64,000 nt of DNA, taken from an uncultured delta proteobacterium. Its GTDB lineage: Bacteria; Desulfobacterota; Binatia; Binatales; Binataceae. This document shows positions 45,773 through 48,962 of the stretch, piece by piece. A program made the translations under genes and the position numbers. Below the pieces are notes generated by a model. It made no database searches, was not told the DNA's origin, and saw only the letters and a list, made by a program, of their open reading frames with translations. How positions within the stretch are numbered: position 1 is the first letter of the stretch; each line of letters starts with the position of its first letter. Location of the stretch: positions 1,344,001 to 1,408,000 of the forward strand of contig CAVRVY010000004.1 in NCBI GenBank assembly GCA_963724765.1, given 5' to 3'.

Positions 45773-45843
45773 TCGCCACAGCGACGCGCTAAGCGATGCG
45801 GCACGTTACGCGATGCGATGGGCGGCATCGGCGGCGAGTCGTG

Positions 45844-45873
45844 TTGACCCTGCTCATCGCGCGCCGCTAGTAT
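45844..45873 (+). promoter_or_regulatory. Candidate sigma70 promoter of the tRNA
   Basis: TTGACC-N18-TAGTAT ending 5 nt before tRNA position 1. Confidence 0.55.
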
Positions 45874-45878
45874 GCCGG

Positions 45879-45955
45879 GGCGGGGTGGAGCAGTCTGGTA
45901 GCTCGCCGGGCTCATAACCCGGAGGTCGAAGGTTCAAATCCCTCCCCCGCAACCA
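45879..45955 (+). tRNA. tRNA-Met(CAT), initiator type
   Basis: Cloverleaf GGCGGGGTGGAGCAGTCTGGTAGCTCG-CCGGGCTCATAACCCGG-AGGTC-GAAGGTTCAAATCCCTC-CCCCGCAACCA; three G-C anticodon pairs, A11:U24, 1/72 mismatch, encoded CCA. Confidence 0.93.
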
Positions 45956-45989
45956 AAAAACCCGCGCTGATGCGGGTTTTTTATTTTTT
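45955..45989 (+). terminator. Intrinsic terminator after the tRNA (bidirectional geometry)
   Basis: aaaaaacccgc-gctgat-gcgggttttttatttttt. Confidence 0.85.
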
Positions 45990-46053
45990 CCTGCAAACGT
46001 CCATCCGAAATCGCGCCGCCGGCGCGCGTCATCGTAGCGCGCGGCACAGCGCA

Positions 46054-47328
46054 TCAAACAATCTTGCGCGCGGTTTCCTGGATCCGATCCATCCACATCG
46101 TAAGCGACGGCGCGTAAACCTGCGGCACGCATTCCGCGCAGATGTCGTCGGCGAGCGTGCGGATGTTCCTGAGCGCGTTGTCGAGCGTAACGGCACGGGC
46201 GAAGCCCAGCGGCAGACAGACCAGAACGTCGCTCAGCGTGCGCAGGGCGGACGCGAGGGCGATCAGAATAGCTTCGAGCACCGCCTCCTCGGGCGCGCGT
46301 TGCGGGCTGTAAAGGAGCGCATGGATTGCACGAAGTTCGCCGCCGAACACCAGCACCGCGCTCTCCAGCCGTGTGCCGACTCGTTGCGGCTGGCTCACGC
46401 CCTCGTCGCACATCATCGCGATCGACTGCAACTCTGAGAGCACCAGGTGAAGGTTGGTCTGCACGCGGTCAAGCCGGGCCTCGAAGGTGACGTTGTAGAT
46501 GTCGCGCACCAGCGCGTCCTGGCGGCGCGAGACGAACTTGGCGACCAGCGCGCCGAAGATGAGCAGCCCAATGACCGCCTCGAAGATCGAGAGGATCCTT
46601 ATCGGCCCAATCGGCAACACGTCGCCGTAGCCGACCGAGGTGGTGGTGACGAAACTGAAATAGAGCGCGCTCAGCAGCCCGTCAAACGTCCCCGCGATCG
46701 GCCTGCCGCTATCGACCAGCCCCGGACGGCGCGAAAACCCGGTCAGCCAGTAAAGGCCTCCGCACACCACGACCATCCCAAGCCATACGAAAAAAATCTG
46801 CGCGGGCGAGAGGCTTTCGATCAGATCGAGCAGCGCGTTGCCCCAGTGCCGGCTGCGCGACAACACCGGTTGCTCCGGCCGTGTCCGGCGCGCCGGCGAG
46901 GGCGTGAATTGCGCAGCCGATTGCAGCGCGGGCGGCGGCGACGGCTCGGCGCTGGCTGGCGCGCTCTTTACCGGCAGACCGGCCTCTTTCCAATCGGCGA
47001 TACCACCGCGGTAGTGCCGCACGTTGATATAGCCGAGCTGCTGGAGCAGGCGGACCGCCTGTGCGCCGGCCGTTCAGGTGAACTTCGCGCAATAGGCGGC
47101 GATGTCGGCGTTGCGGTCGGGCAACACCTGCGGCGCGCGATGTTCCACTTCGGCCAGTGGCAGATTGATGGCGCCGGAGATGTGCTCGGCCGCATATGCC
47201 TCGCGCGGGAGCACGTCGACCAGCAGCAGCGTCGTCTCGTCGAGACGGCGCCTGATCTCGTCGCGCGAAATCTCGCGGACTTCCTCCGCCGGAGCGGCGC
47301 CGGCATTCTCAGCCGAGGTTTGATCCAT
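46054..47328 (-). CDS. Rhodanese-domain / 2-TM potassium channel fusion with in-frame TGA (probable selenocysteine) at 47074-47076
   Basis: ORFs 47074-47328 and 46054-47022 are in the same frame with only the TGA between them. Read-through gives DVLP..Y...HISGAINLP...YCAKFT-U-TAGAQAVRLLQQLGYINVRHYRGGIADWKEAGLP (complete rhodanese), a Pro linker, then ALYFSFVTTTSVGYGDVLP. Confidence 0.8.
47031..47073 (-). promoter_or_regulatory. Candidate bacterial SECIS element
   Basis: mRNA UGA-ACGGCCGGCGCA-CAGGCG-GUC-CGCCUG-CUCCAGCAGCUCGGCU: perfect 6-bp upper stem with a G-led loop ~18 nt after UGA, plus a possible lower stem GCCG/CGGC. Confidence 0.65.
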
Positions 47329-47495
47329 ACTCGAACAGAATACGGCGCGGTATGGCGGTTGTCACGGCCTGAGCTTTTTTAGGTTTCGCTATTTTTCCGT
47401 TTCTTCGGATGACTCTTGTTTGCGCCGTGTCCGGCCATGATATGATTGTGGTCAGCCTTCCAAGCGCCGGCCGGCGCGACGGGGTGCCCAAAATT

Positions 47496-48962
47496 ATGGC
47501 AGACGCCAAGCGCGTACTGGTCGCTGAAGACCATCCGAGGACACGGCACGCATGGGCCGAGCTCATCGCCTCGTGGGGCTTCAAGGTCGAGGCCGCCGAA
47601 GACGGCCAGCGTGCGATCGAATTAATCGGGACTTTCGAGCCGCACATCGTGCTGCTCGATCTAAAGCTGCCGGTGAAGGACGGCCTCGAGGTGCTCGGCG
47701 AAATTCGCCAGCGCGGCCTTCCGATCACGACCATCGTAATTTCCGGCGAGGGCGATATTCCCGACGCCGTGCAAGCGATCAAGCTCGGCGCCTACGACTA
47801 CCTGCGCAAACCCGTCGATCCGCCGCGGCTGCGCCAGACGCTCAATAACCTGAGCGAGCATCTCGCGGTAAGCGAAGAGAACCAGCGCCTGCGGCTGCGC
47901 CTGATGGGCGTGGGCGAGCTGGGACCGATCATCGGGCAATCGCAGGCGATGCGCCGCGTGATGGCGCTGGTGGAACAGGCGGCGCCGAGTTCGGCCTCGG
48001 TCATCATCCAGGGCGATAGCGGCACCGGCAAGGAAATCGTGGCGCGCACGATCCATGAGTCCTCGCCGCGGCGCGGCGGCCCCTACGTGGCGATCAACTG
48101 CGCCGCGCTGCCCGAGGGCCTGCTCGAGAGCGAGCTTTTCGGCCACGAGCGCGGCGCGTTTACCGGGGCCGATCAGCGGCGCGCCGGATGCTTCGAGCTG
48201 GCCAACGGCGGCACGCTGCTGCTCGACGAAATCACCGAAATGAAACCCGAGCTGCAGGCCAAGCTGCTGCGTGTAATAGAGGACCGCAAGCTTAGACGGG
48301 TGGGCGGCAGCAGCGACATCGCGCTCAACGTGCGGGTGCTCGCGGCCACCAATCGCGATCTGGCAGGCGCGATCCAACAAGGGCGGCTGCGCGAGGATCT
48401 CTACTACCGGCTCAACGTATTTACCATCACGCTACCGCGGCTGGTGGAGCGTCTCGACGATCTGCCGACACTGGTCGATCATTTCGTGCGCGAGTTCGCT
48501 CGCGCCAATTCCAAGCAGATAAGCGGCGTGGACAACGAGTGCCTGGAAGCGTTGAAGACGCGGCGCTGGCCGGGCAACGCGCGTGAATTGCGCAACGTTA
48601 TCGAGCGCGCCGTGATCGTCAGCGCGGGCCCGCTGATTACGATCACCGACTTGCCTTCCGAGGGCGCGCTTGCGGGGCCTGCGGCGCAAACCGCCGCCGC
48701 GCCGCCGCGGGCGTCCGAAACTTCCGCGCAATCGGCGCCGTCCGCGTCCGGTTCGCCGGCGCCGGAATTGCCGGTAGGCCAGCCACTGCGCGAGGTGGAG
48801 CGGCAGCTCATCTTAAAAACGCTCGAGATGGCTGGCGGCAACCGGGTGCGGGCGGCGGAAATTCTCGGCATCAGCCCCAAAACTCTGTACAACAAGCTCG
48901 GCCGGTACCAGGCGAAATCCGAATCTGAAAAATCCGAGCCCGAGCCGGCCGACGAAGTTTAG
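47496..48962 (+). CDS. Sigma54-dependent response regulator (NtrC/AtoC family)
   Basis: Receiver domain (LVAED, LLDLKLP), [33 protein letters not shown], Fis HTH. Confidence 0.95.

Follow-up and report, generated by a model that had tools for sequence, protein, structure and literature searches.

Selenoproteins are, to our knowledge, almost all soluble redox enzymes. In the part of its main text available to us, a 2026 selenoproteome review names pumps, permeases and binding proteins as the transport-linked selenoproteins, contains neither a channel nor a CxxxxU form, and ties the selenocysteine (Sec) of transporter-linked members mostly to metal or metalloid resistance, possibly as a metal ligand (PMC13188914). 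No selenoprotein ion channel was found in the literature searched, which agrees with the remark of a sequence-only reading of this DNA that it knew of none, and the gene product described here appears to be the first.

The closest described relatives on the sensor side are rhodanese selenoproteins. Forms 1-4, with the motifs UxxS, UxxG, CxU and UxxG (PMC13188914, PMC9312934), are rhodanese-fold selenoproteins predicted by the same Sec/Cys logic as ours. As listed in the available parts of these sources, U either opens the motif or lies two residues past the Cys and no fusion is named, whereas the present protein keeps the canonical Cys, carries Sec at +5 and is fused to a channel. Its score against the CxU family rhodanese_LYCAU (NF041203) is 39.9 bits with a cut-off of 115, the motif here being CxxxxU. 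TsoB (NF045694) is a rhodanese/DsbD fusion-like selenoprotein with the motif UxxxxU, termed 'rhodanese form 5' in the part of the review available (PMC13188914). Like the channel protein, it joins a membrane domain to a rhodanese loop with two chalcogen residues five apart, and the two rhodanese parts align at E 3.6e-13. In TsoB both positions are Sec and the membrane part is DsbD-like, whereas the channel protein has Cys first and a K+ pore; its 48.5 bits against a cut-off of 805 place it outside TsoB.

On the channel side, KcsA, MthK (RCK), SthK (CNBD) and KirBac have the pore architecture and TVGYGD-type filter in common with our protein, which differs from them in its N-terminal rhodanese and in a C-terminal helical bundle without known relatives. 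Closely related too are Cys-form rhodanese-K+ channel fusions (P0064-P0121), which have the same three-part architecture at 47-57% identity, a YCxxxTC loop, and the filter and C-terminal CxxC of the Sec form, but in which Cys stands where the present protein has Sec and the in-register hairpin described below is missing. Databases label them 'rhodanese-related sulfurtransferase' or give them no name, and no papers on them were found in the literature searched.

One reading frame with an internal TGA

In the window (the whole 64,000-nucleotide stretch of DNA analysed), ORF analysis of the minus strand gives an 84-aa ORF (47328..47074) and a 322-aa ORF (47022..46054) in one frame, parted by a sole stop, the TGA at 47074-47076, just as the sequence-only reading had it. 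When this TGA is read as U, the product has 424 residues and the loop YCAKFT-U-TAGAQA. The gene's own termination codon is also TGA, and UGA therefore does not generally stand for an amino acid here. The main features of the gene are as follows.

46054..47328, minus strand: predicted selenoprotein coding sequence, 424 codons plus the stop TGA 46054-46056, with an N-terminus (MDQTS...) kept in close relatives
47074..47076, minus strand: in-frame TGA, taken to encode Sec85; among 87 distinct orthologous loci, 73 have TGA here and the other 14 have Cys
45955..45985 (limits approximate), minus strand: likely intrinsic terminator 3' of the stop, a GC hairpin followed by a T run, read from the sequence

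From N- to C-terminus the product comprises a rhodanese domain, a linker that is disordered, a K+ pore of the 2-TM type and a bundle of five helices. Around its gene lie genes for an NtrC-type regulator and a histidine kinase, and others that are thiolase-like and FAD monooxygenase-like; the neighbourhood has none for sulfur, selenium or metals and so offers no functional clue.

In a survey of the order to which this genome belongs, 69 of 165 genomes had a full-length match at E <= 1e-100. Exactly one in-frame TGA was present in 61 of these orthologs, two in one and none in seven, and the one-TGA orthologs align over residues 1-424 at 46-86% identity. Further Sec forms come from records whose titles name Acidobacteriota and Eisenbacteria. 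Of 352 relatives found, the best 80 were kept. The Sec column of the 87 distinct orthologous loci contains TGA or Cys (TGC/TGT) and nothing else, the very alternation that had been expected from the sequence alone; the recurrence of the same TGA at the same column in 73 loci is far beyond chance. Among full-length database homologs, the column is Cys in 29 of 30. In a phylogenetic tree, Sec forms extend across the whole tree and Cys forms occupy five places, at least four Sec/Cys switches being forced by the starred branches, and the Acidobacteriota Sec forms adjoin Vicinamibacterales Cys forms. Some relatives contain frameshifts (G132, G133 and a second copy in G129).

Only one base parts TGA from TGC or TGT, and together with those frameshifts this could suggest a nonsense mutation (pseudogene) or an assembly or sequencing error. 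That explanation is effectively refuted: the same TGA recurs at 73 distinct loci, drawn from several phyla and many assemblies, protein-level conservation extends over both halves, and contigs from two runs of different, independent studies span the TGA with 0 differences, in favour of the base that the earlier reading wanted confirmed. Of two further runs, one yielded a contig that ends short of the TGA and the other yielded none; no RNA run was among the sequencing runs listed. By these comparisons, together with the machinery and hairpin described below, TGA 47074-47076 is almost certainly a selenocysteine codon.

Sec insertion competes with termination, and translation might instead end mostly at the UGA, leaving an 84-aa fragment and a separate 322-aa channel started at an internal GTG (47022). 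Gene callers give exactly such products. The 62 closest database proteins (among the best 120 listed) are 292-341 aa long and comprise the channel domain only, a splitting that the sequence-only reading had foreseen; every Sec-form member among the matches listed is annotated as a truncated "ion channel" (about 325 aa) or "hypothetical protein", and no NCBIfam model claims the read-through protein. Such a split, however, would cut the rhodanese fold midway, at the active-site loop. The 17 codons that lie between TGA and GTG are conserved, in the same frame, and encode the helix after the loop. Nor does termination account for a TGA column that alternates with Cys only, or for a stop kept at one column in 61 genomes at identities down to 46%. 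We consider termination highly improbable as the main outcome, and sequence comparison makes it very probable that one gene spans the locus and encodes a single polypeptide of 424 residues, a rhodanese-K+ channel with Sec.

Selenocysteine machinery and a SECIS-like hairpin

All four of selA, selB, selC and selD, the genes named in the sequence-only reading, are present in the same genome. selA scores 516.9 bits, SelB was found by its wing domain, tRNA-Sec scores 70.2 bits against a gathering score of 47, and selD (388.3 bits) adjoins selB and has an in-frame TGA of its own. Within the order, selA occurs in 154 of 165 genomes, and the channel ortholog is absent from 10 of the 11 genomes without selA, the sole exception being a genome that is 64% complete; this co-occurrence test has little power because selA is nearly universal in the order.

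A reading of the UGA as another amino acid, such as Cys or Trp, through a suppressor-type tRNA or near-cognate read-through, was also considered. Aragorn predicts a second tRNA with a UCA anticodon in the genome (contig C1), which would favour this, but by Rfam score it is an ordinary tRNA with an irregular anticodon loop, and it occurs in one of the 165 genomes of the order as against 61 with the TGA form. With a complete Sec system present, and a hairpin at a selD-like distance from the UGA, this reading has a very slight probability.

The hairpin lies shortly downstream of the TGA.

47047..47061, minus strand: core SECIS-like hairpin, a 6-bp stem CAGGCG/CGCCUG with the loop GUC, proposed from in-register pairing, the contrast of Sec and Cys forms and the selD distance
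47031..47071, minus strand: extended stem around the core in the minimum free energy (MFE) fold, predicted for this sequence only and not kept in the folds of relatives

Counted from the U of UGA, the core stem occupies +16..+21 and +25..+30, and the loop +22..+24. Across the alignment, 81.5% of cells pair in register as against 38-54% in slid registers; covariation is modest, with 21 of 500 shuffles reaching the observed score. On average, 5.61 of 7 pairs form in 62 Sec forms versus 3.82 of 7 in 11 Cys forms. Because the sequences in such Sec/Cys contrasts are related, a Mann-Whitney p of 0.006 makes the difference look stronger than it is. In 47 of the 62 Sec forms the start of the hairpin falls at offsets 12-15, as against scattered offsets in the Cys forms, and further loci comprised 11 Sec forms with 5-7 pairs and three Cys forms with 2-5 pairs. 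The selD hairpin of the same genome is spaced almost identically, its distance from its own UGA differing by at most 1 nt. The hairpin overlaps conserved coding sequence (QAVxL), in which all 38 CUN codons at Leu94 are CUG, whereas the adjacent Leu95 takes all four third bases; synonymous-site constraint this strong was seen in only 9 of 194 windows, which is suggestive and not decisive.

An Rfam scan of 45800-47500 at E <= 10 returned no SECIS family, only tRNA-Met and chance matches, and the MFE of the 86 nt around the TGA was ordinary for GC-rich DNA when compared with shuffles (z = -0.73). The informative comparison for the hairpin is the positional one, with the Cys forms and selD, and not the MFE of the whole segment. 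A second SECIS control was sought through the molybdopterin Fe4S4 domain (Sec formate dehydrogenase), and none of its eight matches had a stop inside this short domain. Taken as sequence patterns, these results suggest that a hairpin at +16..+30 is retained in Sec forms and not in Cys forms, as a putative SECIS.

Rhodanese loop, potassium pore and C-terminal bundle

The domains of the read-through product were delimited with profile searches, alignments and an AF2 model.

46981..47265, minus strand: rhodanese domain, residues 22-116 (PF00581, E 1.4e-16; AF2 pLDDT 94-97; PDB fold matches at rmsd 1.3-1.8 A)
47089..47091, minus strand: Cys80 codon TGC, the canonical rhodanese catalytic Cys, which lines up with the loop Cys in PspE and in further rhodaneses of solved structure
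46858..46965, minus strand: Pro/Ala/Ser-rich linker, residues 122-157, poorly conserved in the alignment; residues 133-156 are predicted to be disordered (AF2 pLDDT below 50)
46735..46806, minus strand: outer transmembrane helix TM1, residues 175-198, an AF2 helix (175-198) of hydrophobic sequence
46621..46647, minus strand: K+ selectivity filter TTTSVGYGD, residues 228-236, with S231, G233, Y234, G235 and D236 invariant
46525..46602, minus strand: inner helix TM2, residues 243-268, part of an AF2 helix (243-309) that runs unbroken into the C-terminal domain
46057..46533, minus strand: C-terminal five-helix bundle, residues 266-424 (pLDDT 91.4, pTM 0.84)

The Pfam Rhodanese match scores 61.2 bits against a cut-off of 22.2, covers model positions 2-102 of 102 and crosses the TGA without interruption, which bears out the earlier proposal that read-through restores an intact rhodanese within 424 aa. 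The AF2 rhodanese domain superposes on solved rhodaneses at the rmsd given above, and a Foldseek search with the whole model returned 39 matches at E <= 0.001, those listed being rhodaneses only. Position 80 is Cys in 29 of 30 full-length homologs and corresponds to the loop Cys in PspE, 6mxv and others. Sec85 follows five residues later, and the active-site loop, C80-x4-U85, is two residues longer than in the ordinary single-domain sulfurtransferases PspE and 6mxv, so sulfur transfer is not assured. The nearest sequence relatives of the domain are nevertheless sulfur-transfer rhodaneses, namely the MoeB rhodanese module, TsoB and PspE. Assignment as a PspE/GlpE-type single-domain thiosulfate sulfurtransferase was rejected on the longer loop and on equivalog scores below cut-off (PspE models, 45.7 bits against 102 and 43.5 against 126.3; GlpE, 18.2 against 102).

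In the pore, Ion_trans_2 (PF07885) matches residues 217-267 with 51.3 bits against a cut-off of 22.5. The AF2 model has helices at 175-198, at 215-230 and from 243 onward, and the filter lies between the pore helix and the inner helix. The best matches among PDB sequences are K+ channels (such as Lmo2059, KirBac3.1, K2P, hERG, KcsA and SthK; E 4e-5 to 4e-3), and the filter aligns with TVGYGD of Lmo2059. The filter motif named in the sequence-only reading stands, while the coordinates attached to it there (46621-46650) were one codon too long. Because TSVGYGD is intact and invariant in all 31 aligned sequences, we argue that conduction itself is under selection; from the family, K+ selectivity and tetramer formation would be expected.

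The Pro-rich linker and helical C-terminal domain proposed earlier both appear in the AF2 model. In the alignment, the bundle has an invariant C397-x-x-C400 and a nearly invariant C307 and H336. Generic helical bundles alone were recovered for it by profile against PDB sequences (best E 0.013), by a Pfam scan of 30 members (nothing consistent) and by Foldseek against PDB (0 matches at E <= 0.001), and Pfam and fold searches found no RCK or CNBD domain in the protein. Complex prediction between the rhodanese and the C-terminal part of a Cys-form homolog gave 0.01 against a mark of 0.32, and this value carries no weight either way.

A candidate Sec sensor on a potassium channel

UGA-85 is most probably decoded as selenocysteine by the SelA, SelB, SelD and tRNA-Sec of the same genome, with the hairpin from 16 nt past the UGA as the likely guide. 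Judging from its domains and models, the product would form a tetrameric K+-selective pore like other 2-TM/P-loop channels, and each subunit would carry two cytoplasmic modules, the N-terminal rhodanese with Cys80/Sec85 and the C-terminal five-helix bundle with its CxxC. By taking up a persulfide, or through oxidation to a selenenylsulfide, the Cys80/Sec85 pair might change channel opening, which would tie K+ flux and membrane potential to the redox state of sulfur and selenium. The gating of a K+ channel through a CxxxxU sensor of sulfur/selenium or redox state, as proposed in the sequence-only reading, is a plausible idea. That the pair serves as a redox or reactive-sulfur switch altering channel opening is a tentative proposal, at somewhat less than even odds. 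To the full reading, namely a first Sec-sensor ion channel gated by the persulfide/selenenylsulfide state of the Cys-x4-Sec rhodanese loop, with the CxxC bundle relaying to the gate, we assign a probability of about 0.35.

The same selenoprotein channel could instead use Cys80/Sec85, perhaps with the C-terminal CxxC, Cys and His, as a site for soft metals or metalloids (As(III), Hg, Cd, Cu(I) or selenite-derived Se), and would then respond to metal or metalloid stress and not to sulfur redox. The loop two residues longer than in PspE-type sulfurtransferases speaks for such a site, since longer rhodanese-fold loops go with the arsenate-reductase/Cdc25 branch. The conserved Cys and His residues of the bundle point the same way, as does the role in metal and metalloid resistance that the available part of the review gives to most transporter-linked selenoproteins (PMC13188914). 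The absence of metal-resistance genes next to the channel gene and the kinship of the domain with sulfur-transfer rhodaneses argue against it, and on balance we regard a metal site as unlikely, if worth keeping in view.

Another possibility is that the rhodanese is a working sulfur or selenium transferase or carrier, anchored in the membrane by the channel part or acting on the CxxC domain, and gates no pore. Its catalytic Cys is kept and its rhodanese score is full-length, and in TsoB, too, a membrane domain is attached to a rhodanese, there with a UxxxxU loop, as far as the available account of it goes. Against an anchored enzyme stands the intact K+ filter, invariant in every aligned sequence. 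Cytoplasmic domains on 2-TM K+ pores are, in the cases known to us, regulators (RCK, CNBD). We therefore hold the anchored enzyme to be improbable.

Since every Sec form of this widespread family among the matches listed is mis-annotated and no NCBIfam model rescues it, many annotations would be put right by a family model that allows for a Sec exception. Sec and Cys forms paired by nature in one family offer ready comparisons for what Sec adds. With a Sec-bearing sensor on a K+ channel, channel biology would gain a new class of gating domain, of a sensor type not known from any described channel, and selenium would be brought into the biology of ion flux and membrane potential. If the proposal is true, bacteria of several phyla in soil and peat tie their membrane potential directly to redox or reactive sulfur/selenium status.

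Reading frame, homologs and the TGA column

The single reading frame and domain architecture of the minus-strand gene at 46054..47328 were established directly. Two ORFs of 84 aa (47328..47074) and 322 aa (47022..46054) share one frame, the sole stop between them is the TGA at 47074-47076 (codon 85), and the read-through product of 424 residues terminates at a second TGA (46054-46056), in agreement with the sequence-only reading, which had described two ORFs split only by this codon. At 61.2 bits (cut-off 22.2), the Pfam rhodanese match covers model positions 2-102 of 102 on residues 22-116; it is complete and spans the TGA without interruption, and the Ion_trans_2 pore, scoring 51.3 bits (cut-off 22.5), occupies residues 217-267. 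The intact rhodanese and K+ pore expected from read-through were thereby recovered. The rhodanese loop reads YC(80)AKFT-U(85)-TAGAQA, and the selectivity filter TTTSVGYGD lies at residues 228-236 (46621-46647). Alternatively, two separate products could be made, with a stop at the TGA and an internal GTG start; however, this cuts the rhodanese fold at its active-site loop and leaves unexplained the in-frame conservation of the 17 codons from the TGA to the GTG.

Among the best 120 database proteins listed, the closest 62 (292-341 aa, 68-100% identical) consist of the channel domain only; gene callers therefore cut them at the same place, the split that had been foreseen. More distant relatives among the same 120 (47-57% identical, 388-452 aa) carry rhodanese and channel in one protein. 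When 30 such full-length proteins were aligned, the residue at the TGA column was Cys, within the motif YCxxxTC, in 29; the single exception, database protein P0105, lacks both loop cysteines (YASQTGS) and keeps the architecture. In another database protein, P0074 (634 aa), the rhodanese and channel are preceded by a fused methyltransferase domain.

A six-frame search of 165 genomes of the order, with a full-length match defined as E <= 1e-100, returned such a match in 69, the window's own genome included. Exactly one in-frame TGA was present in 61 of these, two in one and none in seven. Of the 130 loci fetched, 50 came from the order's genomes and 80 from a scan in which each species was represented by one genome; together they yielded 87 distinct sequences around the loop. 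At the column, which was likewise observed directly, the codon is TGA in 73 and a Cys codon in 14 (nine TGC, five TGT), with no other codon, as anticipated from sequence inspection. Beyond Binataceae-type relatives, orthologs with TGA (Sec forms) occur in records titled Acidobacteriota, Holophagales and Candidatus Eisenbacteria; those with Cys (Cys forms) are found, by record title, in Vicinamibacterales, Methylococcaceae, Myxococcota-labelled bins and one Binatus clade. Cys forms fall at five positions in a maximum-likelihood tree of 73 rows, where well-supported branches force at least four switches between Sec and Cys. A TGA/Cys column that switches repeatedly while the sequence on both sides stays conserved is the usual signature of a selenoprotein family.

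Given its conservation across genomes, the TGA cannot reasonably be attributed to misassembly or to a nonsense mutation of recent origin. Contigs of two public sequencing runs from different studies (X2, covering 46981-47133, and X5, covering 46954-47115) also have no differences at 47074-47076, albeit at low depth and with one run possibly being the source sample, and to that extent the same base was confirmed in other data. A second copy of the channel gene in a relative's genome (G129:C11:11969-13240, fetched locus L069) keeps the TGA and is broken into three frames, and two further orthologs are split near the C-terminus (G132:C1:778841-780111 and G133:C39:3896-5168); these could be decaying copies or long-read assembly indel errors.

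Selenocysteine machinery and genomic context

The Sec machinery was also established directly, and the selA, selB, selC and selD that a selenoprotein reading called for are all present in the window's genome. selA scores 516.9 bits, the SelB-specific wing domain lies within a 652-aa frame, and tRNA-Sec scores 70.2 bits against an Rfam gathering score of 47. selD (contig C3:1462704-1463874, fetched locus L053; 388.3 bits) directly adjoins selB and has an in-frame TGA of its own in the motif AAG-U-AGK. Across the order, selA was found in 154 of 165 genomes and the ortholog was absent from 10 of the 11 selA-less genomes, the exception being a genome 64% complete. This co-occurrence fits Sec decoding, but the power of the test is low, since almost every genome of the order has selA. 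The tallies include seven genomes flagged unpublished, which contribute none of the 69 counted orthologs.

The TGA might instead be read by a second tRNA with a UCA anticodon, and aragorn does predict one of 74 nt in the window's genome (contig C1:1040840-1040913, minus strand). By Rfam score it is an ordinary tRNA, its anticodon loop is irregular, and aragorn draws it with an 8-bp acceptor stem and an A at position 33. Only one of the 165 genomes contains this tRNA, which therefore cannot explain a TGA conserved in 61 and, for the same reason, probably belongs to an accessory or mobile element. Adjoining it is another tRNA, of 95 nt, whose anticodon could not be read (fetched locus L057, 122-216); by Rfam score it, too, is a plain tRNA. 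Use of UGA as a general sense codon was ruled out, since the channel gene itself terminates with TGA.

The channel gene is the only one of nine tblastn matches to its rhodanese domain in the window's genome with an in-frame stop. A second rhodanese there (contig C4:1102527-1102844) has an all-Cys loop, YCSGGDC, with the same spacing; thus, the CxxxxC loop also exists in this genome as an ordinary protein. Several genomes of the order contain small rhodanese matches (35-41% identical to the channel's domain) with one in-frame TGA in a frame of about 228 aa. These may represent a separate rhodanese selenoprotein, and tblastn with the channel's rhodanese domain found no such gene in the window's own genome. 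Among those listed for the order are also rhodanese matches with one in-frame TAG in open frames of 700-880 aa, several in selA-less genomes (G025, G041, G016, G002, G011) and others in genomes with selA (G036, G043).

Examples of additional rhodanese matches with in-frame stops in relatives' genomes
G135:C1:267764-268096, small rhodanese with TGA
G078:C86:21023-21346, small rhodanese with TGA
G025:C2:901105-901446, rhodanese with TAG
G041:C5:61684-62028, rhodanese with TAG
G016:C60:8887-9228, rhodanese with TAG
G002:C35:58211-58555, rhodanese with TAG

The neighbors of the channel gene (a thiolase-like gene, an FAD monooxygenase-like gene, tRNA-Met, an NtrC-type regulator and a histidine kinase) gave no functional hint. 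The tRNA-Met gene (45879-45955, plus strand) and the channel gene face each other tail to tail, and a GC hairpin with a T run in the intervening sequence (about 45955-45985) could terminate transcription of both.

Candidate SECIS hairpin

A hairpin positioned downstream of the UGA was observed directly:
47047-47061, minus strand, candidate SECIS hairpin CAGGCG-GUC-CGCCUG, 6 bp, +16 to +30 from the U of UGA

In a codon-for-codon alignment of 41 Sec-form sequences, 81.5% of cells are standard pairs in the 7-pair register, versus 38-54% in registers shifted by 1-3 nt; covariation is modest, its observed score being reached by 21 of 500 shuffles. Because the stem also encodes the conserved residues Q-A-V-x-L, the Cys forms served as the control. 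Of 7 pairs, 5.61 are kept in Sec forms (n = 62) versus 3.82 in Cys forms (n = 11). In 47 of 62 Sec forms the best hairpin begins at an offset of 12-15, whereas in Cys forms its start is scattered from +7 to +28. Loci added later had 5-7 pairs (11 Sec) or 2-5 pairs (3 Cys). Folding energies were -12.5 +/- 2.5 kcal/mol for Sec-form windows versus -9.6 +/- 2.9 kcal/mol for Cys-form windows (Mann-Whitney p 0.006, computed on non-independent rows). The third base of Leu94 pairs in the stem, and all 38 CUN codons at this residue are CUG; all four third bases occur at the adjacent Leu95. Synonymous constraint equal to that of the hairpin codons was seen in only 9 of 194 windows. As an internal control, the UGA of selD in the same genome is followed by a 6-bp hairpin at +15 to +29, offset by 1 nt from that of the channel gene. 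In E. coli fdhF, the apical loop of the SECIS is likewise of the GGUC type and lies at about +22 to +25. The post-UGA hairpin of the channel gene is probably a SECIS.

Protein anatomy, proposed working and known selenoproteins

An AlphaFold2 model of the 424-aa protein, built with a 31-sequence alignment (mean pLDDT 86.2), comprises a rhodanese domain (pLDDT 94-97), a disordered linker (133-156), TM1 (175-198), a pore helix (215-230) followed by the filter, and an inner helix (243-309) that runs unbroken into a helical C-terminal domain. The modeled rhodanese superposes on solved rhodaneses with an rmsd of 1.3-1.8 A. In sequence alignments with PspE and others, C80 aligns with the canonical catalytic Cys, and Sec85 lies within an active-site loop 2 residues longer than theirs. 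The closest solved pore relatives are the K+ channels Lmo2059, KirBac3.1, K2P, hERG, KcsA and SthK (E 4e-5 to 4e-3), and the filter aligns to TVGYGD. Residues 266-424 modeled alone form a confident five-helix bundle (pLDDT 91.4, pTM 0.84), for which neither PDB sequence profiles nor Pfam gave a significant relative and Foldseek gave no match at E <= 0.001. C397-x-x-C400 is invariant, and C307 and H336 nearly so, in 30 diverse members.

From what is known of these families, Sec insertion would be SelB-dependent, the pore tetrameric and K+-selective, and both soluble modules cytoplasmic. We tentatively propose that the C80/U85 pair may be a redox or reactive-sulfur switch altering channel gating, either because C80 takes up a persulfide that U85 then resolves or because the pair is oxidized directly to a selenenylsulfide, with the signal perhaps reaching the pore via the CxxC bundle, into which the inner helix continues. 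As a function for the channel, soft-metal or metalloid sensing is unlikely, and a rhodanese that acts as a membrane-anchored sulfur/selenium transferase with no gating of the pore is less likely still.

A table in a 2026 review of prokaryotic selenoproteomes has five rhodanese selenoprotein forms (UxxS, UxxG, CxU, UxxG, TsoB); the review gives TsoB a UxxxxU motif fused to a DsbD-like domain and lists several transporter-linked selenoproteins, and "channel", "potassium", "PF07885" and "CxxxxU" are absent from its main text (PMC13188914). In the pertinent passages of a 2022 review (PMC9312934) and in a table of the 2005 Sargasso paper (PMC1088965), rhodanese selenoproteins appear only as sulfurtransferase-type proteins. 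The analogue closest to the channel protein is TsoB, which likewise joins a membrane domain to a rhodanese whose loop has the i/i+5 spacing; the channel protein falls far below the TsoB model (48.5 bits against a cut-off of 805), and no NCBIfam model was at or above its cut-off. A selenoprotein rhodanese-K+ channel was not found in full texts of open-licence papers and bioRxiv, where an earlier supplementary listing is possible; supplements aside, the sequence-only reading's statement that it knew of no such description holds for this literature.

We place the probability that the gene encodes a single Sec-containing rhodanese-K+ channel polypeptide at roughly 80%. It joins a known kind of selenoprotein domain to a K+ channel. 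The selenoprotein family itself is real and widespread, and annotation to date has captured it only in truncated form.
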